From an uncultured Nitrososphaerota archaeon (lineage in GTDB: Archaea > Korarchaeota > Korarchaeia > Korarchaeales > Korarchaeaceae), in assembly GCA_964480775.1 (NCBI GenBank), contig CAYZRF010000009.1:1-32000 (forward strand): DNA of 32,000 bases, in the 5' to 3' direction. The translations under genes were made by a program, and so were the position numbers. Positions within the stretch are counted from its first letter, which is position 1; every line of letters starts with the position of its first letter. Shown here one piece after another: positions 5,840 through 31,232 of the stretch. The notes under the pieces were generated by a model. That model worked only from the letters and a program-made list of their open reading frames with translations, searched no databases and was not told the origin of the DNA.

Positions 5840-6646
5840 TTGAAGAGACTTAAGCGTCAGTTCGAAGCTTATTCAGGGATCATTTTGGACTTAGATGGAG
5901 TAATTTGGGTGGGGAAAAGACCAATTTTAGAGGCTGTTGAAGCTGTCAAGGAACTAAGAACTTACGGAAAAAAGGTGCTTTTTGTCACAAATAATTCAAC
6001 AAGAAGCAGAAAGGACTATGAAAAAAGACTTAGAGATCTTGGTCTGAAGGTTAGCATAGAAGAAATTATGAACAGTGGTTATGCAACGGCCCTACTACTA
6101 AAGGAAAGGTATGGTGGCGGGAAAGCTTATGCCGTCGGTGAAAAAGGGCTCATTGAAGAGTTAGAGGGCCAAGGACTACGAGTTATCCATAAAGACGAAT
6201 GTTGGGAGAACGGCGCTGATTTCGTGGTAGTTGGCATGGATAGAAGTTTCGATTACTGGAAAATAGCAACAGCCATGAGAGCTATAAGACAAGGAGCTCT
6301 TTTCATAGCAACAAACGCTGACAAGACTTTTCCAAGTGAGAAAGGATTATTACCAGGAGCTGGCACCATGGTCGCTGCAATATCCACTGCATCAGGAAAA
6401 GAGCCAGACATCGTGGTTGGTAAGCCCAGCAGGCACATTTTTGAGATGGCTATCAGAAAGTTGAACTTGAGGAAAGAAGAGACTTTAGTAATAGGAGATA
6501 GGATCGATACTGACATAGAAGGAGCCCATAAGGCTGGAATCAAATCTTTGCTCATCTTAACAGGAGTAACAAGTAGAGAAGAGGTTGAAAAATCAAAGAT
6601 AAAGCCTGATTTCATTCTGAATTCAATGAAAGAACTCTTTGTTTGA
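5840..6646 (+). CDS. HAD-superfamily hydrolase, subfamily IIA (NagD/phosphoglycolate-phosphatase-like sugar phosphatase)
   Basis: 268-aa ORF. HAD motif I is LDLDGVIW, motif II is FVTNNS, and motif III/IV is GKP...VIGDRIDTDIEGAHKAG. TTG start in the track. Confidence 0.88.
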   Translation: MKRLKRQFEAYSGIILDLDGVIWVGKRPILEAVEAVKELRTYGKKVLFVTNNSTRSRKDYEKRLRDLGLKVSIEEIMNSGYATALLLKERYGGGKAYAVGEKGLIEELEGQGLRVIHKDECWENGADFVVVGMDRSFDYWKIATAMRAIRQGALFIATNADKTFPSEKGLLPGAGTMVAAISTASGKEPDIVVGKPSRHIFEMAIRKLNLRKEETLVIGDRIDTDIEGAHKAGIKSLLILTGVTSREEVEKSKIKPDFILNSMKELFV

Positions 6647-6656
6647 AACTAACTTA

Positions 6657-7394
6657 CTACTCCCAATAAAGCAAGCTTTTCTTTCTACTAACTTTAATTT
6701 CTTTTGCCTCATCATAAGGAGTTGTAAACACCTCCACGATGTGTCTGGCTATCTTCTTTCCAATTCCTTTTACCTCTGCTAACTCCGCCAGATTTGCGTT
6801 TGCTACTCTTCTCAATGTTTTGAATCTCTCAATTATAGCTCTTGCCTTTACAATCCCGAGACCACGTATTGTACCAAGAACCTCAACTTGCTCATCTGCA
6901 AGCGTCTTACTCTTCTTTACTACTCTTAAACTAGGTTTAACCCCAGTTTCCATCTTTTTAGCAAGGAGATAAAGGGTTTTTGGTACAAGGTATTCGTCTG
7001 GAACCACTATCGTAGGAACTCCAGAAAGGGCTAGCTCGTTCTGTATTCCGAGGTAAACATTCCAAACTAAGCTTGGATCTCTTCCCATTGATCTAAACCT
7101 CCTCCACACCACTTTAGGATCTCCTGTTATCATTAGAGAGAAGGGCACCTCTTGGTGAGCCAAAGCGTCAAGTTGGTCGAAAAGCCTCTTAGATATCACG
7201 CTGTTCACTAGATCCAAAACGCTCTTTCTTTCGAGCAATAAAATGTGATCTCCCCCTTTCACCAAGAAGTCTCCCGCTTCTAACCATGAGATTTCTACTG
7301 TTACACCCATTTCTCTTATTTTTTCAGCCCATCCCTTTGACAGATTCTCCCTCTTGTCAACGAGTATTTTCATCGCTCTGTTTTCAATTACCAA
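6657..7394 (-). CDS. xpf: Short archaeal XPF/ERCC4-type structure-specific endonuclease (nuclease domain + HhH2)
   Basis: 245-aa ORF. ERCC4 active-site block GDFLV...LLLERKSVLDLVNSVISKRLFDQL is present. The C-terminal tandem helix-hairpin-helix is LGTIRGLGIVKARAII...LAEVKGIGKKIARHIVEVF. There is no helicase domain, which matches the crenarchaeal-type short form. Confidence 0.88.
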   Translation of the reverse strand: MVIENRAMKILVDKRENLSKGWAEKIREMGVTVEISWLEAGDFLVKGGDHILLLERKSVLDLVNSVISKRLFDQLDALAHQEVPFSLMITGDPKVVWRRFRSMGRDPSLVWNVYLGIQNELALSGVPTIVVPDEYLVPKTLYLLAKKMETGVKPSLRVVKKSKTLADEQVEVLGTIRGLGIVKARAIIERFKTLRRVANANLAELAEVKGIGKKIARHIVEVFTTPYDEAKEIKVSRKKSLLYWE

Positions 7395-7463
7395 TCACTC
7401 CAAATAACTCTTGATATACCAGTCTAGTCCTGTCAAGATAATTCCCAAAATTATATTCTGGGT

Positions 7464-12423: not shown

Positions 12424-14184
12424 TTAAATGATATCCCACTCTTTCAGGGTGTTGCTGAAGTGTTTTAGACCACGTTCAAAATACTCTTCTTCAAGGATAC
12501 CATGAGGTGTGGGAACCTCCAAGATCCTTCTTGGAGCCTTTAGTTCTGTTGGATCGAACCCCATTTGAATCTTAAGGGAATATCTCTGTTTGTATATGTC
12601 TCTTCCAAGTCTATGGAGTTCTTCAGGAGGAACTGGTATGCCTAAGGGGTCTAGTGCTTCCGACACCGTCTCGACATCGTATATGCCTCTCGCAAACAGA
12701 CAAATTACTAGGCTGTTGAGAACCATTCTCCAACTCTCCTCCTTGATCAATTTTTCGACTAGCTCTTCTGGAGGTGGAAGCTCACTGATTTTTTGATCAA
12801 GGGAGTATCCAGCATTGTCAAGATGACTATGCCTGCCTCCGACAAGAAAGCCGAGGTAAGCTGCGGGTCCTGTGTGATATCCGGGCATTTCATTCCCACC
12901 GAAGAAAAGTGCAAATTCCTCTCCTCCAAAACGTTTAGATGCATTCCTAACTCCTAAAGCCAACTCTCTATAGAACTCGTTTGGCTGTTCTACGACCATT
13001 TTTACGGCCTTAATATATGACTCATAGTTGCCCCATTTTAGTCTAAGGAGAGTTTTTCTCTCGGAAATCAGCCCCCTTTCAAGGGCTTCTGTAGCCCAAG
13101 CAAGGCAAACACCAGTGCTTATGGCGTCTAATCCAACTGACTCGACAAAATGCAGAAGCTTCAAGAAGTCCTCTCTATTTCCTATGCCTAACATGCTGCC
13201 CAGGGCGTATGCCAGCTCATAGTCATACGAGATGAATACAGTCTTGTAGAAGAAGGGTTCATGTGGGTAGGGTTCCCTTAACGCTGCAAGATGAATGCAC
13301 GCAACTGGGCATCCTGAACAAGCAATTCTTCTTCCTAAAACCTTTGAAGCCATCTCTTCTCCGCTTATGTTCTCAGCCTGCTCAAATCTGCCTGATTTAA
13401 GGTTCATAGTTGGTAAGGCACCAAGCTCATTTAACGGCAAGACATTCATCGTGGTTCCTAGTTCGTGGTACTTTTTCATCAACCCAGATCTAACGGCTTT
13501 CTCGAAGATCTTATCGTAAACTTTCCTGTAAGCAACCTTATCTTCTACCTTTAAGGCCTTCCTTCCCGAGATAACGATGGCCTTTAGTTTTTTAGAACCA
13601 AACACGGCTCCCAAGCCTAGTCTTCCGAAATGTCTGAAAGATTCTACCATTACTGATGCGTACCTAACCAGCTTTTCTCCTGCGGGACCTATCCTAAGAA
13701 TGCTTCTGTAACCCGCACTTGGCTCCCTTTCAGCAATCACTCTTCCAACTGTAAAACTGCTTGTCATTCCCCACAATGCACTTGCGTCCCTGAAGTGAAC
13801 CCTGTCCTCGTGAATTGCTAAGTATATGGGAGTTTCGCTAGCCCCTCTTATTACAATAGCCATGTAGCCTGCAAGCTTGATCGAAACGCTACTCCTTCCA
13901 CCCGCATACGATTCGCCTAAGTTCCCAGTAAGAGGACTTTTGAAGAGGGCAACAGTCTTGGATCCAAGAGGATACGCTGCATTGAAGGGGCCTACTGCGA
14001 GTATTATGGAATTCTCTGGACTCAAAGGATCGACTGACGTCATGTTCTCTTCTTTCAGTAGTTGAATTCCTAAACCGATCCCTCCAAGCCATTCCTCTAC
14101 TAAGTCATCTCTCTCTTCGACCCAGCTCGTTCTTCTGTTTAGATCTATGTACAGAACTTTTGAGAAAGGCTTCGGTTCGTACAT
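12424..14184 (-). CDS. Aldehyde:ferredoxin oxidoreductase family enzyme (tungstopterin, AOR/FOR-like)
   Basis: 586-aa ORF. The N-terminal AFOR_N pattern is LGGIGLGIQLL...DPLSPENSIILAVGPF...FKSPLTG...GG. The [4Fe-4S] motif is ACSGCPVACIH and the pterin-binding block is GLDAISTGVCLAWA. The ATG follows the upstream stop directly (TGAATG) and is preceded by GAGGAGGTGA. Confidence 0.92.
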   Translation of the reverse strand: MYEPKPFSKVLYIDLNRRTSWVEERDDLVEEWLGGIGLGIQLLKEENMTSVDPLSPENSIILAVGPFNAAYPLGSKTVALFKSPLTGNLGESYAGGRSSVSIKLAGYMAIVIRGASETPIYLAIHEDRVHFRDASALWGMTSSFTVGRVIAEREPSAGYRSILRIGPAGEKLVRYASVMVESFRHFGRLGLGAVFGSKKLKAIVISGRKALKVEDKVAYRKVYDKIFEKAVRSGLMKKYHELGTTMNVLPLNELGALPTMNLKSGRFEQAENISGEEMASKVLGRRIACSGCPVACIHLAALREPYPHEPFFYKTVFISYDYELAYALGSMLGIGNREDFLKLLHFVESVGLDAISTGVCLAWATEALERGLISERKTLLRLKWGNYESYIKAVKMVVEQPNEFYRELALGVRNASKRFGGEEFALFFGGNEMPGYHTGPAAYLGFLVGGRHSHLDNAGYSLDQKISELPPPEELVEKLIKEESWRMVLNSLVICLFARGIYDVETVSEALDPLGIPVPPEELHRLGRDIYKQRYSLKIQMGFDPTELKAPRRILEVPTPHGILEEEYFERGLKHFSNTLKEWDII

Positions 14185-14619
14185 TCATCTCACCTCCTCA
14201 AGAGCTATCACATTGTAAGGGCAGTAGTTCGCGCAATAGCCACAGTACACGCAGATTATGGGCTTGTTTACCTCTTCATCCCAGAAGATTGCTCCAAAGG
14301 GACATGCTTCAACACAATAACCGCAAGCTATGCATTTTTCGGGCTTAAGGATGACGCCTCCCCCTTTTCTAGGCACGAGAGCATCTTCAGGACATACTTT
14401 TGCACATGGAGGCTCTGAGCAGGCTCTGCAAACCACTACGATAAAGCCTTTCTCCATGCCTCCGGCACTTTTAACGTGTATCGCTGACTTTCCATAACCA
14501 ACTTCAGCGAATCTTCTAGTGCAGGCAAGCATACATGAAGCGCAGCCTACGCATAAATCAGAATCTAGAACTGAGAGGCGTTTCGTCAAATATATCCCAA
14601 GTTTGATGTAAATCCTCAC
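14185..14619 (-). CDS. Polyferredoxin-type iron-sulfur protein (four 4Fe-4S cluster motifs), putative electron-transfer subunit of the AOR-family enzyme
   Basis: 144-aa ORF with Cys clusters CVGCASCMLAC, CRACSEPPCAKVCP, CIACGYCVEACP and CVYCGYCANYCP. Its stop abuts the AOR start. The track start is GTG at 14619; the TTG 10 codons downstream (MTKRLSVLD...) is an alternative. Confidence 0.88.
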   Translation of the reverse strand: MRIYIKLGIYLTKRLSVLDSDLCVGCASCMLACTRRFAEVGYGKSAIHVKSAGGMEKGFIVVVCRACSEPPCAKVCPEDALVPRKGGGVILKPEKCIACGYCVEACPFGAIFWDEEVNKPIICVYCGYCANYCPYNVIALEEVR

Positions 14620-15578: not shown

Positions 15579-16553
15579 CTAGAAAGACCTCGCTGCTTTC
15601 ATAAACGCGTGTATATTCTCCAGAGGTGCAAAATAGGGGACATCGCATCCTGTGCTTACTATTAAGTTTCTGAAATCAGACATTCGTTTCAACATGTCTC
15701 CAACTTCCGTCTCTACCACGCCTTGTGGTCTTGTAGCCAACTTCATAGGAGAGTAATTTCCGAACAGAATTACAGCTTCAGGAACTTTTTCGGCAGCAAC
15801 TCTAAGATCTATATTGTCATCAAAGCTCAGAATGTGCGCTCCTGTCTCTACCATATCTAAAAGCAGGTGATTTGCCCTGCCACATATGTGTAGAGCCCAA
15901 GTGGGCCCTACTTTCTCGATTATCCTCGAAATGTAGGGCTTGGAGAACCTTCTGAAGTCTTCATTTGAGATGGAACTTGACATGGGTTCTGCCAAGACCA
16001 AAAGGTCTGTGATGGGAGCTAGTTCCCTTGCATAGCTCAGAATAACATCTGTTGAAAAGGACATGATTTCATCCAAGAGATCGGGTTTTTTCCTAACCAT
16101 TCTCATCAATCTACCGAATCCAACAAGCTGGCCAGCAAGGGTAAAAGGTCCTGACACGTAGAACCCGACAAACGCGTTTCTTCTAAGTTTTTGCATTAGT
16201 TCAGCTGTTCTAATCATGAGAGGGAGCCTTCCGCTAGTTTTCGGATTGGGAACCTCTAATCCCTCAAGATCGGCGCTTGACTCTAGCTTCAAGTGCTCGA
16301 CCACAGTAGGGGCGCTGTTTTCCTTCATGGAAACTTTTACGCCAACTGATTCGGCTTCTACAGTTAGGTCCATGAGTGGAAATACTATATCAAGACCGAA
16401 TTCCTCAAAAGAAGCTTTCATAAGCTTCATATGGAGCTCTGGCTCTCCAAGACATTCGTTTGCCTTTCCATTTATTAACTTAAGGCTTGGATAAGCTACC
16501 AGCGGTGCTACTAACAACTTCTCGCCCGATAGGACCCGATCTACTATATCCAT
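15579..16553 (-). CDS. URO-D-family methylcobamide methyltransferase (MtaA/MtbA-like MT2)
   Basis: 324-aa ORF. It has the MtaA-like block FPLMDLTVEAESVGV and zinc ligands H222-x-C224 (ALHICGR) and C303 (STGCDVP). The ATG is preceded by CAGGAGGAGG, 20 nt after the upstream gene's stop. Confidence 0.82.
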   Translation of the reverse strand: MDIVDRVLSGEKLLVAPLVAYPSLKLINGKANECLGEPELHMKLMKASFEEFGLDIVFPLMDLTVEAESVGVKVSMKENSAPTVVEHLKLESSADLEGLEVPNPKTSGRLPLMIRTAELMQKLRRNAFVGFYVSGPFTLAGQLVGFGRLMRMVRKKPDLLDEIMSFSTDVILSYARELAPITDLLVLAEPMSSSISNEDFRRFSKPYISRIIEKVGPTWALHICGRANHLLLDMVETGAHILSFDDNIDLRVAAEKVPEAVILFGNYSPMKLATRPQGVVETEVGDMLKRMSDFRNLIVSTGCDVPYFAPLENIHAFMKAARSF

Positions 16554-16573: not shown

Positions 16574-17953
16574 TTAAGGTTTACTTACGCCTAATTCCTC
16601 TAATTCCTTCCAAACCCTTTCATATATGGCGAGCCAGTCTGGAACTGGTTTAAGAGTTACCAGGTTAGTGAGCTCCTTAAAACTGCGTCCCTTTGGAGGA
16701 TCCCTTAACCTTCCCTCGTACTTTGGTAAGAGCTCCTTAACGACATAGTTAACATCGGAGAGCTTCATTCCGGCAGATGCTTTCAATATTTCTGCGCAGA
16801 ACTTATTCTCAAGCCCACTACAATAATTAGGATATTTACATGCAGCTGGTCTTGTTCCGATCACGATAGCAGCCCCAGATACTGCTTCGGCGAGGGAGAT
16901 GCAAGCTGTCTCATACAAGATCATATCAGTTCCTGGACCAGCCACCTGACTGGTTATTCCTAGAACCATTGAGCGGCTGTTTCTAGATTTGGCTTGATTA
17001 GCTACGCTCGTAGCCCAAAGAGCTTCCCTTCCGCAGTTTCCAAAGTATCTTCCATCTAATATTGTGCTCTCTATAACAGTTGGTTGCATTGATGCTGCCT
17101 GTAGGATGTGGGCTGCAATTGCGCCTAAGGCTGCCCCTTCAGGAGGGCCGAAATATCCACCTATAGTTGTCATGTGCCCTGCTTCAATTGAAGTACCTGT
17201 AATCAGGGCAACGGCTACTCTGTGCAATATCCTATGTGGTAGGGTGATGGGCTCAGGTATTAGACATATGGCAAGCGTGCACTCTGGCTCAAATCCCCCT
17301 GGTAGGAAACCTCCGAAGAAGCCATACTCTGTAGGTGCTCCTTCAACCCCAAACACAGGCATTCCAGGCCTTCCAGCCCTATGAAGGGCCTCTTTAACAA
17401 GCTTTGCCTCGTAAAATCCCGCCAGGGTCTCATAGGGCGTCCTTGATCTAACCTCCCTTCCGTGAAGCCTGTCTAGACAGGCACCTAGAAGCATGTCCAC
17501 AACCCTGTATTGGGCGATTGACTGACAGATTGGGACATAAAGCTCCTCTGAGACAGAGAGCCCTAGAGCAGACATGGCTGCTATAGGAGGACTCGGGTCC
17601 TCGGGCACCCTGACCTTGATAGTGATCCTATCCTTTCCCTTTCCCAATGAGACCTCGGATACTGCATTTTTTAGCGCTTCCTCTATCTCCTCTTCGGTGA
17701 ACTTGACAATTCTCTCAGTCTCAGGGCAGAACATTCCCAGCTCAACCGCAAGAGAGAAACCTGCCTCCCAGAACTCATCAGCTAAACTGAGATCCATGTT
17801 TATGGGATTGTTTGGATCGAACGTCCTCTCTAACCCGTGATCCTTTAATACCCTCATGGTTGTTCTGGGAACTAACTTGTAGTCCCACTCCTTTCTTGAG
17901 ATGGGAGGTCCTATTAGGGTCCTGTCCATAACCTCTAACAGCTTCGATACCAT
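16574..17953 (-). CDS. MtmB-family (monomethylamine methyltransferase-like) protein lacking pyrrolysine; putative substrate:corrinoid methyltransferase (MT1)
   Basis: The ORF is open from GTG at 17971 (465 aa). ATG at 17953 (459 aa) is the likelier start, with GGAGGTGA 8 nt upstream inside the end of the corrinoid-protein gene. Blocks match recalled M. barkeri MtmB: KEWDYKLVP / DDWDLMKIP, RIVKFTEEEI / RIVKYTEDEI, PYETLA / PYEVLA, AGRPGMPVFG / AGRPGMGV(Pyl)G, AGPGTDMILYE / AGPCTEMCLLE, GRSFKE...LEELGV / GKTFQE...LEDLGL. There is no in-frame TAG. Confidence 0.8.
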   Translation of the reverse strand: MVSKLLEVMDRTLIGPPISRKEWDYKLVPRTTMRVLKDHGLERTFDPNNPINMDLSLADEFWEAGFSLAVELGMFCPETERIVKFTEEEIEEALKNAVSEVSLGKGKDRITIKVRVPEDPSPPIAAMSALGLSVSEELYVPICQSIAQYRVVDMLLGACLDRLHGREVRSRTPYETLAGFYEAKLVKEALHRAGRPGMPVFGVEGAPTEYGFFGGFLPGGFEPECTLAICLIPEPITLPHRILHRVAVALITGTSIEAGHMTTIGGYFGPPEGAALGAIAAHILQAASMQPTVIESTILDGRYFGNCGREALWATSVANQAKSRNSRSMVLGITSQVAGPGTDMILYETACISLAEAVSGAAIVIGTRPAACKYPNYCSGLENKFCAEILKASAGMKLSDVNYVVKELLPKYEGRLRDPPKGRSFKELTNLVTLKPVPDWLAIYERVWKELEELGVSKP

Positions 17954-17961
17954 TGAATTGG

Positions 17962-18651
17962 TCACCTCCACTCCCCAACTAGAACGGGCTTCTCAACCTC
18001 CTTTCCTCTTTCCTTCAATAGGTTACAGAGCTTTACAGCACCTTCCGCGTCCTTAGCCCATCCATCTGCCCCTATCTCCTTAGCCCACTCTGGATAGACT
18101 GCTGCTCCACCGACTATGACGTAATATTTGTCTCTGATTCCCATGTCCACTAGTCTCTGAATTACATCCCTCATGTAAAACATGGAAGGGCTCAATAGAC
18201 ACGAAATCGCAATGAAATCAGCCTCCGCCCTCTCAGCTTCCTCCACAAACTTCCTAGGTTCAACGTCAGATCCAAGGTCGAATACCTCATAGCCATTTGC
18301 CCTAAGCAAGGATGCTACTATGTTCTTCCCAATGTCGTGGATATCCCCGTAAATCGTCCCTATGACAACTTTTCCTTTCCTGAATTCCTGAGCTCTTTCA
18401 CTTAACTTTGGAATTATGATGTTTAAGGCTGCATAAGCTGTATCTGCTGCTAATACCAAATCAGGTAGGAATAGCTCTAACTTCTCGTATTTCTCCCCAA
18501 CTGTATCAAGGCCCTTCTTTAATCCCTCATTTATTATCTCTAGCGGGTCTATTCCTGCTTCAAGCGCTCTTTTAGTTGCTTCTTTTATGCCTTCTTCATC
18601 ACCATTAACAACCAAGTCTTTTAATCGATCTAGCAGTTCCTGCTTTCCCAT
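17962..18651 (-). CDS. Corrinoid (cobalamin-binding) protein of methyltransferase systems (MtmC/MtbC/MtaC-like)
   Basis: 229-aa ORF with ATG start. It has an N-terminal helical B12-binding_2 cap and a Rossmann-like domain carrying the D-x-H-x-x-G motif (GDIHDIGKN: D103, H105, G108), followed by the SCLLS and VIVGGAA blocks. Confidence 0.92.
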   Translation of the reverse strand: MGKQELLDRLKDLVVNGDEEGIKEATKRALEAGIDPLEIINEGLKKGLDTVGEKYEKLELFLPDLVLAADTAYAALNIIIPKLSERAQEFRKGKVVIGTIYGDIHDIGKNIVASLLRANGYEVFDLGSDVEPRKFVEEAERAEADFIAISCLLSPSMFYMRDVIQRLVDMGIRDKYYVIVGGAAVYPEWAKEIGADGWAKDAEGAVKLCNLLKERGKEVEKPVLVGEWR

Positions 18652-19510: not shown

Positions 19511-21514
19511 TTACGTTTGGTAAGGAGATTTTGAGGGTTTTTTGTTGTATGTTCTAAGTTCGATTGCAGTTGGTATTGAAAAGACAAAAGCTACCAAAGC
19601 CAGCCATCCAGAGATGTTTGATTCAACAATCTCTGCATTGAGAATTTTTTCCCACGAAATCTCATTTATTTGGCCGTCTTTCCCTATTTTGATCGTTGCT
19701 ACATTCTCATAAACTCTCTCTTGCCAAGTTCCCAAATGATACAACCAGATTTTGAGGGAAATTCCTCCCTCTGTTATCCCGCTGTGACGCATAACCTCCT
19801 CTAAACTCTCTACATAAATGTTTGAAACTATCTGATCAGATTCCACCTCCGATTCTCCTGAGGAAATTTCAACCACGTCTACGCTCAAAACCCAACGGAC
19901 TTTGATCTCATGGGCTTCATCTCGCTGTTTAACCCAAATCTCAATGCTTGAAGGCCTTCCAACTACCCTCAAATTTGAGGGCTCAGTCCTATGACAGCCG
20001 CAGGAATATTGAGGAAACTCCACGAAAGTTCCGTCCGGCCATCTAACAACCACTTGAGCTTTCCAGCTTGGAATTGAGAGAGAAAACCAAAGTATGGACA
20101 TACAAGTTAAGGCAAAGAGAATGATCGCTAGATAACGCTTGCCTTTTGACCATATAGCTGCTGATACTAAGACAAATGGGAAGCAAAAGAAGGCCTTTAG
20201 AGGATCCGATCTCGCCAAACAAAGCGAGGCTATTGCTCCCATCGAAAATATTAAGGTGAGACGGGAATTGAATGACCTAACTTTTTCTAAATCCAAGAAC
20301 GGAATAATTACTCCTGCCGCTCCTAGAGAAGCTCTAATCAGCACAGGAGTGTCGTAACTAGTTGCTAAGAAATATGTCCCCAGAGACAATAGCAAGATGC
20401 CTGATATCAGGTCAATAATAGTTACCTTTGTTCCTATCCATCTCTTCATTGTTCTTGACTTTAATCCTGCCCAAACGCTAAGTAATATGGCAATTAAAGG
20501 CGAGATGAATACAGAGTTGTAAAGAATGAGTGCTAGAAAGGCTCTAGTCTTATTAATGCCGACTAAGAATGAGGAAGCAAGAAGATAAGGTCCCATGGAG
20601 CAAGGAAGTAATGTAAAGCTAACCAAGGCTCCTAAGGTAATTGCCTCAACGGAGCTTGCAGAACCCTCAAAGACCTCAAATCTTCTAATAGTGATTTTTC
20701 TCAGAGGCTTAGGCAAAGGAGCCCTATGAATCCCTGATTGAAAGTTTCTCAACTCGAAAACGCCTAGAGCTATGAGGGCAGCACTGAAGAGGGGGATGAG
20801 GGTCCTCAGAAGGGAGGCAATGGTCAGGAGCCCCAGACCCAGAAGGAAGTAACATAGATAAACTGTGGCGATAAAGGCAACACCTGACCTAAGCGCTCTT
20901 CTCCTTCCACCAGAAGCCATAGAGAGGACCAAAAGGGTAGCAAATACCACGAAAGTGCAGGGGTTCACTGAATCCGCAGCCGCTAAAATAAAGAACTCTT
21001 TAAGCTCAAATTGAATTGAAGATGGCTTTGATTTGAAAATTTCCTCTAATCTCTTAACTTCTTCTCCTTCTAGATATCTTAGCTCATGTTCTTTGTAAGA
21101 AACTAACACAGATCCAGGACTTATCCTTCCTTCTAGTGAACTTAGGAATTCTTGGTCATGATAACCAGCCAAGATTGCCACAAGACTGTCCTGAGAAAAG
21201 ACTACAACTAAAGGAGCTGCTCGAACCCCTTGAGGAAAGGCAAGTTCATAGATCTCATCTACTATGGCGGCTATTTCAGCTCCTTCTGGACCAGATAACT
21301 CATAGAAAACAATTGATTCATTTCCGAATAGTTCTGATATGGTTTTAAGCTCCGACCCGCACTCAGAGCATCCAATTGTTCCGTATACAACAAAAGTCAA
21401 ATTAGGCTGTGCATAAATGGAAGCCAGTTGTGTTGAAAAAACCATGGCTATTAGCAAAGCAACTAAGATCTTCATCAAGATTAAGCTTGCGATCCTTCTT
21501 TTTTTGCCTTTCAA
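19511..21514 (-). CDS. Fusion protein: signal anchor + thioredoxin-like CxxC domain + CcdA/DsbD-type thiol:disulfide transporter core + extra TM helices + C-terminal extracytoplasmic domain
   Basis: 667-aa ORF. C49-S-E-C52 sits in a Trx-like context (VVYGTIGCSECG). The DsbD/CcdA signature cysteines are in TM helices: DSVNPC186TF and LLPC305SMGP. Additional helices follow, then a ~150-aa beta-rich segment with a CGC motif and a final TM anchor. Confidence 0.7.
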   Translation of the reverse strand: MKGKKRRIASLILMKILVALLIAMVFSTQLASIYAQPNLTFVVYGTIGCSECGSELKTISELFGNESIVFYELSGPEGAEIAAIVDEIYELAFPQGVRAAPLVVVFSQDSLVAILAGYHDQEFLSSLEGRISPGSVLVSYKEHELRYLEGEEVKRLEEIFKSKPSSIQFELKEFFILAAADSVNPCTFVVFATLLVLSMASGGRRRALRSGVAFIATVYLCYFLLGLGLLTIASLLRTLIPLFSAALIALGVFELRNFQSGIHRAPLPKPLRKITIRRFEVFEGSASSVEAITLGALVSFTLLPCSMGPYLLASSFLVGINKTRAFLALILYNSVFISPLIAILLSVWAGLKSRTMKRWIGTKVTIIDLISGILLLSLGTYFLATSYDTPVLIRASLGAAGVIIPFLDLEKVRSFNSRLTLIFSMGAIASLCLARSDPLKAFFCFPFVLVSAAIWSKGKRYLAIILFALTCMSILWFSLSIPSWKAQVVVRWPDGTFVEFPQYSCGCHRTEPSNLRVVGRPSSIEIWVKQRDEAHEIKVRWVLSVDVVEISSGESEVESDQIVSNIYVESLEEVMRHSGITEGGISLKIWLYHLGTWQERVYENVATIKIGKDGQINEISWEKILNAEIVESNISGWLALVAFVFSIPTAIELRTYNKKPSKSPYQT

Positions 21515-22460: not shown

Positions 22461-23816
22461 ATGGATCTCCTGAATGGAGACTGGTGGAAAGCTGGCGCTG
22501 GCCCTGGAGGTTTGTGTCTAAATGGTCTAAAGGCCATCATTACTATGGAACCCTCAAATCCGATTATTTGGAATGGTCACATTTGTGTCGAGGATGGATT
22601 GATAAAGAGCATAGGTGTTGGTAAGGGACCAAGGGCAGAGGTAGAAATAGAGACTCATGGGAAGGTAGCTATTCCTGGCATGATAGATCTCCACTCCCAT
22701 TCTACTCAATCTTTTCTAAGGGGTGTATTCGATGAGATATGCCTCATGGAGTGGTTAAACGAAACCGATGTATCCTATTCGAGAGCAAAAAGAGAATTGC
22801 TTGAAATATCATCTACGATCTCTTTTCTCGAAAGATTGAAGGGAGGAGTCACCACAGTAGTGGATATGGAGCCCTTTCCCGAGATAATTGCTCGAGCTTC
22901 TGAAAAGATTGGTTTGAGGACCGAAATCTCCGTTCTGATGGCTGATACCCCAGAACTTCCTAGTCAAGAGGTTTCATCGCTAGAACAGGAGTTGAAAAAG
23001 GCTAAAAGTGCTATACAAAAGTTTCAGAGAAATCAAAAGTTATGGGTATCTCTAGCTCCCGTAGGTTTTCCTGCAGCCTCAAATGAACTTTTTAAGAGAT
23101 CTGCAGAACTCGCAAAGGAAAAAGGACTAAGGCTCCATACTCATGTTGCTGAGAGCAGAATAAACGCAAACCTATGCAAGAGAAGAAATAGGAGGAGCGA
23201 AATTGAGCTTCTAGAGGATCTTGGATTCTTAGGTCCAAAAACTCAACTTGCCCATGCTATCTGGATAAGCGAGACGGATATCGAGACTCTTTCAAAATAT
23301 AGAACTGCAGTCGTTCATTGCCCTTCAAGCAACCTGAAGCTCGCAGCAGGCGTGTCGAAAGTACCTGAGATGATAAAAATGGGAGTTAAAGTTGGACTTG
23401 GGCTTGATGGAGCAGCTAGCAACTCCAGCCAAGATATGTTCCAAGAGATGAGAATCGCATCAACATTACATAAAGGGGTTAAAGGAAATCCAAAAGCCGT
23501 GAAAGCCGAAGAAGCACTTAATATGACGACTGTACAAGCTGCAAAAATACTTAGACTTGAAAAAACGTTAGGAAAGATATCTCCTGGCTATTGGGCTGAT
23601 TTTTCTCTAATTGATGTGTCACAACCCAGGTACTTACCAATAGAGGCCATAAGGTCGCACATAGTTTATTCAGCCCAAGCTTCCGATGTTTTCGGTGTAA
23701 TAGTTGGGGGAGAAGTTCTTGTTTGGGAAAGAACGCACACCAGTTTTGACGAAACTTCCCTCTTAAAGAGAGCAGGTGAACTTTTCTCAGAGTTCCTGAA
23801 CGGTGTGCTCCTTTGA
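22461..23816 (+). CDS. Metal-dependent amidohydrolase of the MtaD/SsnA/chlorohydrolase (nucleobase/nucleoside deaminase-like) group
   Basis: 451-aa ORF. Blocks present: KAIITMEP...VEDGLIKSIG, IPGMIDLHSHSTQSFLRG (HxH), LHTHVAES, VVHCPSSNLKLAAG, GLGLDGAASN. The ATG lies 4 nt after the BtpA stop. TTG at 22512 is an alternative start. Confidence 0.85.
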   Translation: MDLLNGDWWKAGAGPGGLCLNGLKAIITMEPSNPIIWNGHICVEDGLIKSIGVGKGPRAEVEIETHGKVAIPGMIDLHSHSTQSFLRGVFDEICLMEWLNETDVSYSRAKRELLEISSTISFLERLKGGVTTVVDMEPFPEIIARASEKIGLRTEISVLMADTPELPSQEVSSLEQELKKAKSAIQKFQRNQKLWVSLAPVGFPAASNELFKRSAELAKEKGLRLHTHVAESRINANLCKRRNRRSEIELLEDLGFLGPKTQLAHAIWISETDIETLSKYRTAVVHCPSSNLKLAAGVSKVPEMIKMGVKVGLGLDGAASNSSQDMFQEMRIASTLHKGVKGNPKAVKAEEALNMTTVQAAKILRLEKTLGKISPGYWADFSLIDVSQPRYLPIEAIRSHIVYSAQASDVFGVIVGGEVLVWERTHTSFDETSLLKRAGELFSEFLNGVLL

Positions 23817-24925
23817 TCTCAAGGAAAAAGTTTACGTCACTGTACATTTCGACTTTTCTATTGACAACAGGCGTGGGAGCAACTATTCCAGCCCTAGCTC
23901 AAAAGGTCTACCTAATATCTTCATCAGACGAACTTGTCTCGCTAGTGATTGGAACTTGGGGTCTCTCTTACACAATATTGAGCGCTCTTTCTGGTTATTT
24001 AATTAACTTTTTTGGAAGAAAAGGGGTTTCTTTCCTTGGTTTGCTAGGTGCGTCTGTTTCTGGTATTATAATGGAGTTATCTAACTCTGTATCTGCGCTT
24101 GCCTCATCAAGATTCCTTACAGGGGCTTCTGAAGCTCTTGTCCTTAATTCTTTCATCACTATAACCTCTTTTGAATCCTTAGAAAAGAGAGAAGGCTGTC
24201 TTGGTCTACTGTATGCTTCTATGGGTCTTGGATTGTTCTCGGGACCTTTTTTCTACTCTTACTTCTTGGGATCAGATCCCAAAAAAGGCTTTTTCTTGTT
24301 GATTCTTCTTCCTCTTATGTCAATACTCCTTCTTCCATCATATCAAGAGGGATTTTCAATGGATAGGTCGTCTCACCCTAACTTAAGAAAAGTAGCTATC
24401 CCTTTAACTGTGTCTCTACTAATAGGGGCATTGGAAGGATATTTTCAAGGGTCGGGAGTGAGCCTTGTTAGAGCTTGGGGGCATGATCCCTCGGATTTTG
24501 GAAAGATTTTGTCCCTCTATTTTGCGTTTAGCATTGTCGTCCAAGGCACGATGCCCTTCTTGACCAAAGTTTTTAGGGCGGATAGCTGGGCAGTTAGCTT
24601 TTCTATATGGACAATCTTCACATCGAGCCTGCTCATCGAGTTAAGGTCCAAAAAATTTCCTTTCTTATTCTCTGGCTTATTTGGGGCTTCTATTGCCGTT
24701 TGTAGCGTAGCTTTAACTTCATTATTATCTGAATTAACTACAGAGAAGGAAAGAGCATTTGCTATAGGGATGTCGAGTTCAACTTATTCACTGGGCTACT
24801 TTATTTCTCCTATTTTCGTCTTTATATTCAAAAATCAGGTTTTTGGAGTGTTCTTTATGTCTATACTACTTTTTCTCTTAGCAGCAATCATTAGATTTCC
24901 GTTAAGACCTTCTAACGAGATTTAA
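23813..24925 (+). CDS. MFS-type transporter
   Basis: 370-aa ORF with about 11-12 hydrophobic helices and a motif-A-like block, SGYLINFFGRKGV. The TTG start overlaps the amidohydrolase stop (TTGA). Its 3' end overlaps the convergent ecfA gene by 14 nt. Confidence 0.65.
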   Translation: MISRKKFTSLYISTFLLTTGVGATIPALAQKVYLISSSDELVSLVIGTWGLSYTILSALSGYLINFFGRKGVSFLGLLGASVSGIIMELSNSVSALASSRFLTGASEALVLNSFITITSFESLEKREGCLGLLYASMGLGLFSGPFFYSYFLGSDPKKGFFLLILLPLMSILLLPSYQEGFSMDRSSHPNLRKVAIPLTVSLLIGALEGYFQGSGVSLVRAWGHDPSDFGKILSLYFAFSIVVQGTMPFLTKVFRADSWAVSFSIWTIFTSSLLIELRSKKFPFLFSGLFGASIAVCSVALTSLLSELTTEKERAFAIGMSSSTYSLGYFISPIFVFIFKNQVFGVFFMSILLFLLAAIIRFPLRPSNEI

Positions 24926-25736
24926 GAAATTTCCGAATTACTTCTGCGGCCTCGTCAACCGTCAAGAACTTTTTTGGGAATTTCCCAACCTTGAGGTTTA
25001 GCTCCACAACCTGTGGAGGTCTTATGAAAGCCTTTCGCAAAGTCTCATAGTCATATAAGACTTCTTCTACCGATCCATCCTTCAAGATCCTACCATCTGC
25101 CATCAAAATAACTCTTTTAGCAGTTCTGGCAACGAATCTCATGTCATGAGTTATTACTACAACAGTTTTACCTTCTTCATTGAGTCTTATGCATAGATCG
25201 CTTAGAACCTTTCTTCCAACATGATCTTGACCTGTTGTTGGTTCGTCTAAAACGAACACCTCAGGATTCATCGACAATATTGAGGCAACCGTTAGAAGCT
25301 TCCTCTTTCCGAAATCTAAATCATAAGGATGCATTTCTTCAGTTCCTTCCAATCCAACAACCTTCAAAGCCTCTTTTACTCTTCTATCCACCTCTTCCTC
25401 ACTTAAGTCCAAGTTTCTAGGACCATATGCAACTTCTTCGTAAACAGTACTCATAAATATCTGGTGAGCTGGGTTTTGGAACACATATCCGACCTTCGCT
25501 ACTATTTTATGGGTTGGGGTCTCTTTAGTGTCCATTCCTGCAACAACAACTCTACCCTTCGTAGGTTTTAAGAGTCCATTGAAATGTTTCGCCAAAGTTG
25601 TCTTTCCTCCACCATTCTGGCCTATCAAAGCAAGGATCTCTCCAGGATGGATCTCTAGGTTAATCTCTTTTAACGCAACGACTTCTGGACTGTATTCGAA
25701 CCAAACGTCCTCAACCCTAATTATTGGTTCAGTCAT
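24912..25736 (-). CDS. ecfA2: ECF-transporter ATPase component with degenerate ABC signature motif
   Basis: 274-aa ORF. Walker A is GQNGGGKTT, Q-loop is FQNPAHQ, Walker B is VFVLDEPTTGQD and H-loop is ITHD. Where LSGGQ is expected the sequence reads LDFGK. The start overlaps the upstream stop (TAATG). The symbol reflects gene order only. Confidence 0.88.
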   Translation of the reverse strand: MTEPIIRVEDVWFEYSPEVVALKEINLEIHPGEILALIGQNGGGKTTLAKHFNGLLKPTKGRVVVAGMDTKETPTHKIVAKVGYVFQNPAHQIFMSTVYEEVAYGPRNLDLSEEEVDRRVKEALKVVGLEGTEEMHPYDLDFGKRKLLTVASILSMNPEVFVLDEPTTGQDHVGRKVLSDLCIRLNEEGKTVVVITHDMRFVARTAKRVILMADGRILKDGSVEEVLYDYETLRKAFIRPPQVVELNLKVGKFPKKFLTVDEAAEVIRKFLKSR

Positions 25737-26590
25737 TAACTTAACGCCTCCTTATAGAGATCTATTGCTTCATCTAGCGTTATTGGGTAATCTTCTCTTG
25801 ATACCCCCAACTCATTTCTGAGAAGGTGCGTGAGTTCAGTTACCGAAGGCGGATCTACCCCTATCTCCTTAAGTTTCTCTACGCTTGACAAAACTCTCTT
25901 TCCCTCACCTTTTAATACCATTTCCCCATCATATAGCGCTATAATCTCATCTGCAAATGTTGCAAGTTCCTCTATCTCATGCTCAGCGACTACTATCGTT
26001 TGACCTCCAGCAGCAAGTTCCTTAACAGTTTCGAAAACCTCAAACTTTCCTATGGGATCTAGTTGGGCAGTTGGTTCATCAAGTACCAGTATCTCGGGTC
26101 TTACTGCTAAAACGGTTGCTATGGCTAGCCTTTGTTGCTGTCCTCCAGAGAGTTCGTAAGGTGATCTTCCCTCCAGACCTTTTAATCCAACCGTTTCTAT
26201 AGCTTCTTTGACCCTTTTATCAATCTCTTCTTTAGGAAATCCGAGCATGGCAAGACCAAAAGCAACTTCTTCCTCTAATGTAGTTGCAACTCCCGATAGC
26301 TGATCTAGTGGATCCTGAAATACGATTCCTACCTTCGTCGAGAGCTCCGCTATGGTGTGTTTAAGGGTATCCATTCCAGCGACGATAACTTTGCCAGACA
26401 TTCTGCCGCCAAAGAACTGAGGCACAATTCCGTTTAGAGAAAGGCATAAAGTTGTCTTTCCAGCTCCGTTTGGACCTATTATCCCTAAAACTCCTCCTCT
26501 CTTAACTTTGAAGGAGATGTGCTTAAGCACATTCTCCCTCGTAGGGTAGGAATAAGTGACATCTTCAACAATGACCGGATACTCTTCCAA
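25736..26590 (-). CDS. ecfA1: ECF-transporter ATPase component (canonical motifs)
   Basis: 284-aa ORF. Walker A is GPNGAGKTT, Q-loop is FQDPLDQ, the signature is LSGGQQQR, Walker B is ILVLDEPTAQLD, and the H-loop histidine sits in AEHE. TTG start. The symbol reflects gene order only. Confidence 0.9.
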   Translation of the reverse strand: MEEYPVIVEDVTYSYPTRENVLKHISFKVKRGGVLGIIGPNGAGKTTLCLSLNGIVPQFFGGRMSGKVIVAGMDTLKHTIAELSTKVGIVFQDPLDQLSGVATTLEEEVAFGLAMLGFPKEEIDKRVKEAIETVGLKGLEGRSPYELSGGQQQRLAIATVLAVRPEILVLDEPTAQLDPIGKFEVFETVKELAAGGQTIVVAEHEIEELATFADEIIALYDGEMVLKGEGKRVLSSVEKLKEIGVDPPSVTELTHLLRNELGVSREDYPITLDEAIDLYKEALS

Positions 26591-26613
26591 TCTAATCGCC
26601 TCTTCCCATAAAA

Positions 26614-27564
26614 CTATCTCCCATAAACAACTCTGGAAACTAGGAGATCAATGAAGGCCTTACCATCAAGGTCAACGCAGACATTGGCATTCGCAGGTCT
26701 CTTAAAGGATTCCGGAAGCCATTCTCTAAGATCTGCCAGAGTTTCGCCGCGCGTTAAAGTACCGCAGACTTCAACATCTACATGAAGCCTCTTAAACTTG
26801 AAGATTTCTGGCTTTATCATATAGCTTAGGGCCATTGGATCGTGCATAGGAACTGGTTCTATAAGATAGACGAATCTTCTCAGCATCTTTTGTATTAACT
26901 CTCCCGTCTTAGTTCCTGCCTTGCCTATCTCTTCATAGAGGGATTTGCTTATCCCCGCATCTGGCCTCATGGTAACATCAAGACCGAAGGCGTAGATCTC
27001 TGCTCCTGAATTAAAGACTATTTTCGCTGCCAAAGGATCTGTAGCAATGTTGAACTCGGCTCTTGGACTTTCATTTCCATATCCCCAAGGAGTTGTTGCA
27101 TAGGCTCCACCCATTATAACGATAGAAGACAGTTTATTGGCAATATTGGGTTCAAGAAGCAATGCCATTGCAACATTGCTAAGAGGTCCAGTTGCTACGA
27201 TACTTATCTCCTTTGGACCACTGTCCATAACTTTCTCTCTTATGAAGTCAACAGCATGGCCCTTCGCAGGTTTCATACGGGGTTCTGGGAGATTAACGTC
27301 TCCAAGTCCATCTTGGCCGTGAACAAATTCAGCTGTCCTAAGTTCTCCAAACATAGGTCCTTTCATACCAGCAAATACTGGGACTTTCTCTAATCCCATA
27401 AATTCAAGCATTTTGAGGGCATTTTTCGTGGTTAATTCAAGAGGAACATTTCCTCCTACCGTTGTGATTCCTAAAATCTCCAATTCTGGAGATCTGCAAG
27501 CAAGCATTATAGCGATAGCATCGTCTATTCCAGGATCCATGTCCAGAATTACTTTCTTACCCAT
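26614..27564 (-). CDS. Inosine-uridine-preferring-type nucleoside hydrolase (IU-NH family)
   Basis: 316-aa ORF with ATG start. It has the N-terminal aspartate cluster ILDMDPGIDDAIAI (DxDxxxDD), then GNV, ATGPLSN and HDP blocks. Confidence 0.92.
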   Translation of the reverse strand: MGKKVILDMDPGIDDAIAIMLACRSPELEILGITTVGGNVPLELTTKNALKMLEFMGLEKVPVFAGMKGPMFGELRTAEFVHGQDGLGDVNLPEPRMKPAKGHAVDFIREKVMDSGPKEISIVATGPLSNVAMALLLEPNIANKLSSIVIMGGAYATTPWGYGNESPRAEFNIATDPLAAKIVFNSGAEIYAFGLDVTMRPDAGISKSLYEEIGKAGTKTGELIQKMLRRFVYLIEPVPMHDPMALSYMIKPEIFKFKRLHVDVEVCGTLTRGETLADLREWLPESFKRPANANVCVDLDGKAFIDLLVSRVVYGR

Positions 27565-27566
27565 AT

Positions 27567-28415
27567 TTATCCCGCTACCACATATTTGAGATGAACAATG
27601 GGTGAATTCCCGTATTTCAAATAGATATACACAACTAAAATGGTCAAAGCTGCCATTCCAGCCATGAAAACGAAATCTTCCATTTGAAAAGTTATCTCCT
27701 TCAAAGGAGTCTTTTTAGTGGGGGCGGTAAAACCTCTCGACTCTAAAGTTATTGCTCTCGTCTGAACTCTATTCAATGAAGACAGAGTTAAAGGAACTAC
27801 CAAAGCTATGTAATTCTTGAACTTCTTTACAAGACCCACATCGGTCTTAAGACCTCTAGACACTTGAGCCTGAAAGATTGTTCCAACCTCATCTGCTAAA
27901 ATTGGAATGAGTTGGACTGCTGCAGTAAACATGTAAGCCAGCTTATACGACATTTTCATTTTCGTTATGGTAGAAGTTATCTCCGCCAGTGGAGTAGTCA
28001 AGTAGAAAAGCATCGCTGAACCTATGCAAACTCCCACCCTTGCAGGCCAGGTTATTGCATACGCTAATCCTTCATAATAAAAGGAAAATTCTCTGCCAAA
28101 TAACTTAATCGTAAAGAGAACTGTTTCATTACCCTGAAAACCTGCTGAAGGTGACAAGATAATTATCCCAACTAATATCCACGGAATCACTATTACGGCT
28201 TCAGTTAGATAGATCTGTTTGTGTATCTTTGCAATTCTTGCGCACATAAGTAGTGCGACAAGCAGCACTGAGACAAGTACATAATCATAGAAAAGGTAGG
28301 CTATTATAGATATCCACCAGAAAAAGATGAATTTTGTCCTTCCATCGAGCCGATGAAAAAAGGTGTTGCCTGCTGTATAAGCTCTCTTCAATAATAAGCT
28401 TCCTACAGCACTCAA
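27567..28415 (-). CDS. ecfT: ECF-transporter transmembrane T component (EcfT/CbiQ family)
   Basis: 282-aa ORF. LDGRTKF is near the N-terminus and several TM helices follow. The conserved coupling-helix arginine motifs are QAQVSRGL and TRAITLESRGF. Confidence 0.85.
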   Translation of the reverse strand: MSAVGSLLLKRAYTAGNTFFHRLDGRTKFIFFWWISIIAYLFYDYVLVSVLLVALLMCARIAKIHKQIYLTEAVIVIPWILVGIIILSPSAGFQGNETVLFTIKLFGREFSFYYEGLAYAITWPARVGVCIGSAMLFYLTTPLAEITSTITKMKMSYKLAYMFTAAVQLIPILADEVGTIFQAQVSRGLKTDVGLVKKFKNYIALVVPLTLSSLNRVQTRAITLESRGFTAPTKKTPLKEITFQMEDFVFMAGMAALTILVVYIYLKYGNSPIVHLKYVVAG

Positions 28416-28458
28416 CTACATCACCAAAAAAGAGGAAAGGGGGAATTTATATAAACAA

Positions 28459-29049
28459 TTATCTCTTTGCCAAGACGAAGCGCTTAGGAACCCTGCTTGC
28501 GACGATAAGAGCTAAGATCCATGAGATTGATTTGTCTATTAGCTCAGTCGCCACATTCTGAAGATAGTATGCCAGAAGCTGATTCCCGGTGGCACTCAAA
28601 ACACCAAAGTAAACTATTGCTGTTGGTTTCGCTAGAGGACCGGCACCAAACGTGTAGAGCCCTATTGCTGTACATTGGATTGAGTAAACAAAACCTAACC
28701 ATAGGAAGGCAGGAATGAGCTTCAATGGTTTCTTTAGGTCATCCCAACCGAGTTTCATGAACATAAAGGACCATATGGCTATTGCTATGTTACATGTCCC
28801 CCAGATCCAAGCTGGTAGACCCCACACAGTCATAGCCATAATAAGGTTGTAAAGGAAACCTCCTATTGCTCCAACCCACACACCCGAGATCAGTGTTCCC
28901 AACATCGTAGCCCAGGTGTCTCCCCAAATGGGTAGTTTGAGAGTCTCTACTATTACCCCTGTCACGTAGTTCAGTCCTGCAATTACTGGAATCATTACTA
29001 GAGCCATTATCTTTGCCCCAGTAGGCACAACTTCCCTACTTTCTGACAT
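28459..29049 (-). CDS. ECF-transporter substrate-capture (S) component-like membrane protein, specificity unknown
   Basis: 196-aa ORF with six hydrophobic helices. It shows the S-component-like pattern LPIWGDTWATMLGTLISGVWVGAIGGFLYNLI and lies directly upstream (43 nt) of ecfT. Confidence 0.6.
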   Translation of the reverse strand: MSESREVVPTGAKIMALVMIPVIAGLNYVTGVIVETLKLPIWGDTWATMLGTLISGVWVGAIGGFLYNLIMAMTVWGLPAWIWGTCNIAIAIWSFMFMKLGWDDLKKPLKLIPAFLWLGFVYSIQCTAIGLYTFGAGPLAKPTAIVYFGVLSATGNQLLAYYLQNVATELIDKSISWILALIVASRVPKRFVLAKR

Positions 29050-29153
29050 ACCGCATCATCTTCCTCGTTTCGTTAGTTGGCTAACCTGTCGCCTGATATA
29101 ATATTAAGATTTCCCCTTTTTCACCAAAAAAGAAATGTAGGTGTGGTAAAAGG

Positions 29154-29936: not shown

Positions 29937-29954
29937 AGATTCTGAAGGTTCATG

Positions 29955-29967
29955 TAATTCTAATAAA
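29955..29967 (-). promoter_or_regulatory. Candidate TATA box for the second nucleoside phosphorylase gene
   Basis: On the reverse strand, TTTATTAGAATTA spans -31 to -19 relative to the ATG at 29936. The spacing matches the other first-gene A/T boxes in the window. Confidence 0.3.
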
Positions 29968-30082
29968 CTTGTTTGAGATTCCAGATTATGAAATCTCTTT
30001 TCACGAAAAACTATAAACACCTCCTTGTTGCACTCACTCTCCACCCCTCAGTTTCAAAGCATGATGGTGCGTCTTCGCATTT

Positions 30083-31021: not shown

Positions 31022-31201
31022 GGAACCACCGGCATTCCTTTCACGAAGAACTCAAAAAAGTGTTGCAGTTTGAAATACTTGTTGACACAATCCGCATTTT
31101 AAACCTATTTGAAGCTCCTAAAGACAGTTTAATAGTAGTTTAGGCCCAAAATTCAGATTATTTTCAAGTCTAGAATGGAAACAATCTCACTAACCAAAGA
31201 G

Positions 31202-31213
31202 ATTAATTAATTT
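31202..31213 (+). promoter_or_regulatory. Candidate TATA box for the edge-truncated amidohydrolase gene
   Basis: ATTAATTAATTT is centred about 26 nt upstream of the ATG at 31233, in the 211-nt divergent spacer shared with rbsK. Confidence 0.3.
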
Positions 31214-31232
31214 CTCAAAAGTTGGAATTTAG

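Follow-up and report, generated by a model that had tools for sequence, protein, structure and literature searches.

A full-length pyrrolysine-free MtmB-superfamily protein with phenylalanine at the pyrrolysine column, probably a corrinoid methyltransferase for a donor other than monomethylamine

The stretch analyzed here (the window) comprises the first 32,000 nucleotides of contig CAYZRF010000009.1 (assembly GCA_964480775.1) from an uncultured archaeon of the Korarchaeales. A minus-strand operon of three genes in the window encodes, in order, a corrinoid protein, an MtmB-like protein (the query), and an MtaA-like protein (Table 1). The query is a full-length pyrrolysine-free member of the MtmB (monomethylamine methyltransferase) family, and a TTT codon for phenylalanine stands at the column of pyrrolysine (Pyl) 202 of MtmB. 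Around this codon the reverse strand reads GGA ATG CCT GTG TTT GGG GTT GAA GGA, with TTT at 17353..17351. Members of the query's 90% cluster have been deposited as "hypothetical protein" from metagenome-assembled genomes (MAGs) labeled Thermoproteota archaeon or Candidatus Korarchaeota archaeon, and contig L007, which is 98% identical to and fully syntenic with the window, has the same operon order.

Table 1. Features of the window, with positions counted from its first nucleotide.
Feature	Positions	Strand	Remarks
Pyl-free MtmB-superfamily methyltransferase gene	16574..17971	-	465 aa from GTG 17971; more likely 459 aa from ATG 17953
TTT codon, Phe207 (Phe201 from ATG 17953), column of MtmB Pyl202	17351..17353	-	From alignments
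GGAGGTGA Shine-Dalgarno-like motif	17964..17971	-	Overlaps TGA stop of the corrinoid gene; 8 nt upstream of ATG 17953
Cognate corrinoid protein	17962..18651	-	Pfam B12-binding_2 and B12-binding; DxHxxG motif DIHDIG at residues 103-108 (18328..18345)
MtaA/CmuA-family (URO-D fold) methylcorrinoid methyltransferase, candidate MT2	15579..16553	-	Pfam URO-D, 1e-56
Aldehyde:ferredoxin oxidoreductase and 4Fe-4S ferredoxin	12424..14619		About 1 kb beyond the methyltransferase operon, with a triosephosphate isomerase gene between
667-aa multi-pass membrane protein	19511..21514	-	No Pfam match at E <= 1e-3
cog0402-type amidohydrolase (methylthioadenosine/S-adenosylhomocysteine/adenosine-deaminase-like)	22461..23816	+	Pfam; NCBIfam matches all below cut-offs
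Energy-coupling factor (ECF)-type module, two ATP-binding cassette (ABC) ATPases	24912..26590		Salvage-like island
IU-nucleoside hydrolase	26614..27564		Salvage-like island
CbiQ/EcfT	27567..28415		ECF-type module, salvage-like island
196-aa open reading frame	28459..29049		ECF-type module; no Pfam match
PNP_UDP_1	29154..30044		Salvage-like island
PfkB kinase	30083..31021		Salvage-like island
Second amidohydrolase, truncated	from 31233		Salvage-like island

The open reading frame (ORF) of the query contains no in-frame TAG, and its sole in-frame stop is the TAA at codon 466. Since the ORF is also of full length, a mis-split amber-containing gene is ruled out, in agreement with an earlier sequence-only reading of this DNA; the protein database lists true Pyl-containing MtmBs as post-TAG pieces about 245 aa long, unlike the query ORF. 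ATG 17953 is the likelier start codon, rather than GTG 17971, because the GGAGGTGA motif precedes it at a distance of 8 nt and the MtmB-like homologues (about 460 aa) start at approximately residue 7 of the query. The overlap of this motif with the stop of the corrinoid gene is a predicted translational coupling of the two genes. Counted from ATG 17953, the phenylalanine is residue 201 and falls beside Pyl202, so that the near-coincidence of numbering remarked upon previously holds.

The query matches the Pfam family MtmB (PF05369) over residues 12-461 of 465 with 268.8 bits (cut-off, 25) and an E value of 1.1e-79. A phmmer search against all PDB sequences returned Methanosarcina barkeri MtmB1 (1L2Q/1NTH; E, 1.2e-54) and aligned query residues 117-219 with residues 112-214 of the MtmB1 chain without gaps, placing AGRPGMPVFGVEG over AGRPGMGVXGPET and F207 on X202, the X of the MtmB1 chain being indexed to residue 202. 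Phe207 and Pyl202 also share a column in three independent MAFFT alignments (122, 240, and 30 sequences), which bears out the placement of the TTT codon that the sequence-only reading had made from a remembered MtmB block. An AlphaFold2 model built on 100 homologues has a mean predicted local distance difference test (pLDDT) score of 97.4, and its superposition on the MtmB crystal structures 1NTH, 1L2Q, and 1TV2, a check proposed with that reading, gave template modeling (TM) scores of 0.94-0.96 and a root mean square deviation of 1.5 Å over 453 columns at 27% identity (Foldseek). The pyrrolysine of MtmB is residue 202 and is anchored on a strand of the beta-barrel (PMC9842639), a picture matched by the short strand that residues 206-207 form in the model. 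No NCBIfam model matched the query, and hence the MtmB label has no equivalog backing. The MtmB residues presumed to contact pyrrolysine (E229, E259, Q333, and Y335) align to A, G, I, and S in the query, with the alignment gapped near 259; small or hydrophobic residues in place of acidic and polar ones would fit a loss of the entire environment that supports Pyl. The window holds no tRNA genes, and hence no pylT, and none of its 29 ORFs has a Pyl-related Pfam match. Because a phenylalanine cannot form a methylammonium adduct, the substrate or the catalytic strategy of the query would have to differ from that of MtmB; this reasoning, already part of the sequence-only reading, is in line with the field and not new.

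As in MtmB, the query gene comes after that of its cognate corrinoid protein, an order that we take to be the one of the Methanosarcina mtmCB genes. The corrinoid protein has pyl_corrinoid and MtgC/MtbC-like NCBIfam matches, all of them under the cut-offs. The best PDB match of the MtaA-like protein is Methanosarcina mazei MtaA (4AY7; E, 7e-29); LHICG and, farther along, GC are conserved in the alignment, and the H-x-C (H222 and C224; 15882..15890) plus C303 (15645..15647) pattern of zinc ligands is kept. Its NCBIfam match to the mtaA_cmuA subfamily lies below the cut-off and it does not reach the equivalog cut-offs for MtaA and MtbA that would assign the methyl acceptor. A His-Cys-Cys zinc site marks the S-methyltransferases of the UroD superfamily, and UROD-family enzymes can also be MT1s, that is, the substrate-specific methyltransferases of corrinoid systems (PMC10418091). 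A link between the operon and "mlp" type-1 gene clusters was considered and ruled out, as that study concerns methyl-selenide UroD-family enzymes and does not mention MtmB.

The family is large and variable at the Pyl column. Searched exhaustively with HMMER, 1.84 billion 50%-cluster representatives yielded 833 members at E <= 1e-3. A scan of one genome per GTDB species gave a closest match at 64% identity, with a Methanomethylicia MAG, Ca. Terraquivivens (Caldarchaeales), and Nitrososphaeria as the best hosts and with Hadarchaeota and Ca. Hecatella at lower identity. Tabulation of the column across Pyl-free homologues, as had been proposed, found 19 different residues in 125 near-full-length 50%-cluster representatives (L 23, G 15, I 14, V 10, S 8, T 7, A 7, M 6, F 5, and others), and the 120 homologues of a 90%-clustered collection carry H (38), T (16), F (10), W (9), I (8), G (6), and others. 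Within the query's clade, assigned from a neighbor-joining tree of the closest 64 sequences, the column always holds an aromatic or imidazole ring. Phe is found in the query and in P0001-3, P0032, P0048, and P0051, Tyr in the sister sequence P0004 (71% identical to the query), Trp in P0005, P0009, and P0040 (Trp homologues, 65-67%), and His in a tight subclade of 34 sequences (His homologues, 55-65%). Phe as a conserved signature was rejected, given Tyr, Trp, and His in close relatives and 19 residues across the representatives; the signature of the clade is the ring at the Pyl column and not Phe itself.

Only 14 columns, 207 among them, divide the F/W/Y group completely from the His group. 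Further ones are 132/133 (A-M in the F/W/Y group versus E/D-G), 163/164 (G-A/C versus A-P), and 234 (A versus G), which in the AlphaFold2 model lie at or just past the barrel strands flanking that of residue 207. By the sequence-only reading, variation of the Phe among close homologues would imply a position outside any functional pocket. The residue does vary, but within the clade the variation is limited to rings and co-varies with neighboring barrel-strand positions; both features argue for a pocket role. The pattern would fit a pocket-lining specificity position rather than a catalytic one. In full-length relatives from an MtmB1-seeded search, the column is occupied by Q, C, K, T, M, L, I, F, H, D, or E. 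Five of these proteins (P0288, P0289, P0290, P0294, and P0296; full-length, 45-49% identical to MtmB1, P0294 being named as a Methanomassiliicoccaceae protein) carry Lys precisely at the Pyl column (GMAIKGPETPLS), as read from protein sequences, in which AAG and an artefact of a translated TAG look alike.

A corrinoid gene lies directly upstream of the MtmB-like gene in nearly all of the more than 50 related loci compared, and in the close relatives L057 and L058 only this pair is conserved. Paralogy can be extreme: one Hadarchaeota MAG (CAYUMT01) encodes at least 15 MtmB-like copies (loci L019, L023, L026-L033, L036, L040, L043, L055, and L056), many in tandem and with the Pyl-column residue differing between copies (W, F, H, I, L, T, N, S, Q, A, Y, E, and V). 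Several of these copies adjoin their own Bmp binding protein or amidohydrolase. Three tandem copies in L030 have one common corrinoid gene, and several paralogues likewise occur with a single one in L026. At one locus of this MAG (L059, the same as L023), a RuBisCO large-subunit gene (6151..7422) lies about 1.2 kb from a tandem MtmB-like pair, as a single case; were it of the archaeal form III, it would belong to a nucleoside/AMP degradation pathway.

Transporters and amidohydrolases recur beside the pair. The His subclade has a divergent RACo gene followed by the operon corrinoid protein, MtmB-like protein, and MtaB-family protein, and then, in convergent orientation, a Bmp-family binding protein, two BPD_transp_2 permeases, a fused double ABC ATPase, and often an aldehyde:ferredoxin oxidoreductase (loci with the Bmp importer: L003, L012-L016, L022, and L025). 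The MtaB-family gene always follows the MtmB-like gene in this subclade (L003, L004, L012-L018, L021, L022, and L025), so that two TIM-barrel methyltransferases have one corrinoid protein in common; its product scores 544 bits against the NCBIfam MtaB model, under the cut-off of 720. The hosts are Caldarchaeales/Terraquivivens, Nitrososphaeria, and a Methanomethylicia MAG, and to our knowledge most of these lineages are not known as methanogens. In F and W members (L001, L008/L020 of Ca. Hecatella, and L010), the pair is flanked by a Bmp-type importer and then by a cog0402 amidohydrolase of about 450 aa.

Overall, 14 of the 21 distinct clade loci (>=54% identity) have a Bmp importer within about 6-7 kb, as a raw count. 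The arrangements number at least six, but eight of the 14 loci are built alike and do not count as independent. Farther from the query, importers of this type also appear in Hadarchaeota loci and in one Acidimicrobiia bacterium (L048). Among the closest solved relatives of the binding protein is AtzT (6PI5), which was co-purified and solved with guanine; in Thermococcus, nucleosides are taken up by NupDABC, an archaeal transporter of the BMP family (PMC12628685). An amidohydrolase gene stands directly downstream in L008, L010, L027, L033, L040, and L043 and within 6 kb in the bacterial loci L038, L046, and L050, with Hadarchaeota, Clostridia, Formimonas, and Anaerolineales loci among those that have amidohydrolases. 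As these neighbors are themselves diverse paralogues, 25-45% identical to each other, the methyltransferase seems to diversify jointly with the binding protein and the amidohydrolase, in cassettes.

Pyl-free homologues of MtmB have been known for years, and the query is a further member of this branch. It has the Pfam family, the TIM-barrel fold, and the GRPGM-x-V-[X]-G strand motif in common with M. barkeri MtmB (1L2Q/1NTH). It differs in its 27% identity, in Phe (TTT) in place of UAG/Pyl202 with no TAG in the gene, and in its host, a MAG labeled Thermoproteota/Korarchaeota rather than a Methanosarcinales methanogen. The first and only Pyl-free superfamily member with a demonstrated function is MtqB of Methanococcoides methylutens Q3c, reported in 2026, which methylates cob(I)alamin from tetramethylammonium or choline, thereby demethylating both, and has a small monomethylamine activity (PMC13044021). 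Docking placed its ligand nitrogen 0.8-1.0 Å from the nitrogen of the Pyl adduct, in a predicted pocket lined by aromatic and sulfur-containing residues (PMC13044021). Like the query, MtqB (459 aa) is encoded beside its own corrinoid protein. MtqB is reported to branch close to the MtmBs that contain Pyl; the clade of the query is remote from these and has other transporter and enzyme neighbors. Full-length Pyl-free relatives of MtmB1 reach 41-57% identity to it and the query only 27%, which would place the query outside that neighborhood.

The closest analogy is offered by the MttB superfamily, likewise a Pyl-dependent family with a much larger Pyl-free branch (MtgB, MtpB, MtcB, and MtyB) that diversified into substrate-specific MT1s for glycine betaine, proline betaine, carnitine, and gamma-butyrobetaine (PMC9768040). 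It is nevertheless a separate sequence family (Foldseek TM score of about 0.5 and 11-15% identity), its Pyl lies on a different side of the barrel (PMC9842639), and the known substrates of its Pyl-free enzymes are all quaternary amines. Ga0180325_111810 of "Ca. Formimonas warabiya" DCMF, a bacterial protein, was the most strongly induced protein on dichloromethane; it is a Pyl-free MtmB-superfamily member induced without monomethylamine, and a non-methylamine role has been suspected (PMC9768040). A DCMF locus (L046) was retrieved at 44% identity, with copies that carry Thr or Ile at the Pyl column and that may or may not include Ga0180325_111810.

On these grounds, the query is most likely the substrate-specific MT1 of a three-component corrinoid system, with a methyl donor other than monomethylamine. 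The MtmB-like MT1 would transfer a methyl group from this donor to the upstream corrinoid protein, and the MtaA-like zinc enzyme would pass it on to a thiol, either coenzyme M or another. Phe207/201, on the barrel strand that anchors pyrrolysine in MtmB, would form no covalent adduct; its ring may instead provide the floor or wall of the space left by the long side chain of pyrrolysine, and this vacated space may be the substrate pocket, with the substrate held by stacking or cation-pi contact. An MT1 role is preferred over one as methylcorrinoid methyltransferase (MT2) because the corrinoid gene precedes the MtmB-like gene with predicted translational coupling and is paired with it almost universally in more than 50 loci, and because the extreme paralogy with differing Pyl-column residues is comparable to the substrate spread of the Pyl-free MttB enzymes. 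Three points weigh against this assignment. No RamA/RACo activase is encoded in the 32-kb window, although one is adjacent in the His-subclade relatives; it could lie elsewhere in the host genome. The UROD-family neighbor could itself be an MT1, in the manner of MtsA or the O-demethylases, and the MtmB-like protein would then have another role. Further, the nearness of residue 207 to the co-varying positions is deduced from strand order in a predicted model. As to the donor, we hold an N-methylated heteroaromatic compound, purine- or nucleoside-like, to be a tentative candidate and a quaternary amine, as for MtqB, to be a somewhat weaker one, and leave the remaining probability to other S-, O-, or N-methyl compounds.

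For a quaternary amine such as tetramethylammonium or choline, the ring at the Pyl column would be part of an aromatic box and make cation-pi contact with a trimethylammonium group. This is rather doubtful, even though MtqB is the sole characterized Pyl-free MtmB, its docked ligand sits amid aromatic and sulfur-containing residues (PMC13044021), and Phe, Tyr, or Trp would suit such contact. His, which occupies the column in the large sister subclade, is ill suited to cation-pi contact; the query, at 27% identity to MtmB1, is remote from the Pyl-containing MtmBs near which MtqB reportedly branches; the clade is associated with transporters of the Bmp type, whose characterized relatives bind purines and nucleosides; and the neighbor tables examined contain no betaine- or choline-type transporter. 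The direction of transfer could also be the opposite, with the MtmB-like protein as an MT2 that moves the methyl group from the methyl-corrinoid to a pterin (tetrahydromethanopterin or tetrahydrofolate) or another acceptor and with the UROD- or MtaB-family neighbor as MT1. The His-subclade operon with its RACo gene would then amount to a full methanol system, MT1s are known among UROD-family enzymes (PMC10418091), and a pterin could be stacked on by an aromatic ring. We regard this as improbable: an MT2 for a universal cofactor would be expected to be single-copy and conserved, whereas the family reaches at least 15 copies in one MAG, its pocket column is hypervariable, and one corrinoid gene can be common to several paralogues (L030 and L026). 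The corrinoid-first gene order with translational coupling and the His-Cys-Cys site of the window's UROD protein, typical of thiol methylation, also speak against it.

Monomethylamine itself, used without pyrrolysine and perhaps released locally by a neighboring amidohydrolase, is very improbable as the donor. Databases and metagenome papers routinely name such genes mtmB or monomethylamine methyltransferase, and cog0402-type amidohydrolases adjoin many family members; some amidohydrolases release methylamine from N6-methyladenine. MtqB, too, has its small residual activity on this substrate, yet methylamine activation is considered to depend on pyrrolysine (PMC13044021 and PMC9842639). Furthermore, the missing NCBIfam match deprives the MtmB call of equivalog support, the presumed Pyl-contacting positions hold A, G, I, and S, and a hypervariable column argues for many substrates and not for one.

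Elsewhere in the window, positions 22461..32000 resemble an island for nucleoside or base salvage, which begins with a cog0402-type amidohydrolase gene and also includes a major facilitator superfamily transporter. The best PDB match of this amidohydrolase is the methylthioadenosine/S-adenosylhomocysteine deaminase 4F0R (8e-61). Its link to the MtmB-like gene is weak, because it is located 4.5 kb away on the opposite strand. Its identity to the operon-linked copies of the relatives, which are themselves diverse, is no more than 27-34%, and an orthologous relationship to them is unsupported. Aldehyde:ferredoxin oxidoreductase genes, one of which lies beyond the methyltransferase operon here, stand beside MtmB-like loci in six other contigs of different lineages (L001, L003, L014, L015, L024, and L047). 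By eye, the 667-aa membrane protein has an N-terminal CSEC motif and, within a transmembrane segment, a proline-cysteine motif that recall thiol-disulfide transporters of the DsbD/CcdA type.

A wider proposal, which we put forward as speculative and on balance unlikely, is that the query's clade and much of the surrounding archaeal and bacterial Pyl-free branch are corrinoid-dependent demethylases for N-methylated heteroaromatics. Necromass would be the source of the substrates, with methylated purines or nucleosides or related bases as candidates, and these would be imported by the co-diversifying Bmp-type ABC transporters and processed by the co-diversifying cog0402 deaminase-like amidohydrolases, and the aromatic or imidazole residue at the former Pyl position would stack on the substrate ring. 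The hint comes from gene neighborhoods, in which Bmp importers of purine/nucleoside type and cog0402 amidohydrolases recur beside the corrinoid and MtmB-like pair; the salvage-like island of the window may count toward the same proposal. It should be weighed against this that the 32-kb window holds no Bmp transporter and that its amidohydrolase is not operonic. A limited literature search found no relevant account of corrinoid-dependent demethylation of methylated nucleosides.

Environmental genomics (e.g., PMC10321748) scores such genes as mtmB and infers from them that Bathyarchaeia, Korarchaeia, Hadarchaeota, and other lineages use monomethylamine or are methylotrophic. The query provides a concrete example of why this inference is unsafe, because its Pyl column holds a plain, variable residue and the NCBI record reads "hypothetical protein". 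It belongs to a family of 833 clusters at 50% identity in which one Pyl-free member has a known function, and the clade-specific residues at the Pyl column, together with the links to importers and amidohydrolases, point to a substrate panel and to mutagenesis targets for de-orphaning it. If the proposal of heteroaromatic substrates is true, these enzymes would be an anaerobic counterpart to oxidative nucleobase demethylation and would add a new substrate class to the corrinoid methyltransferases.

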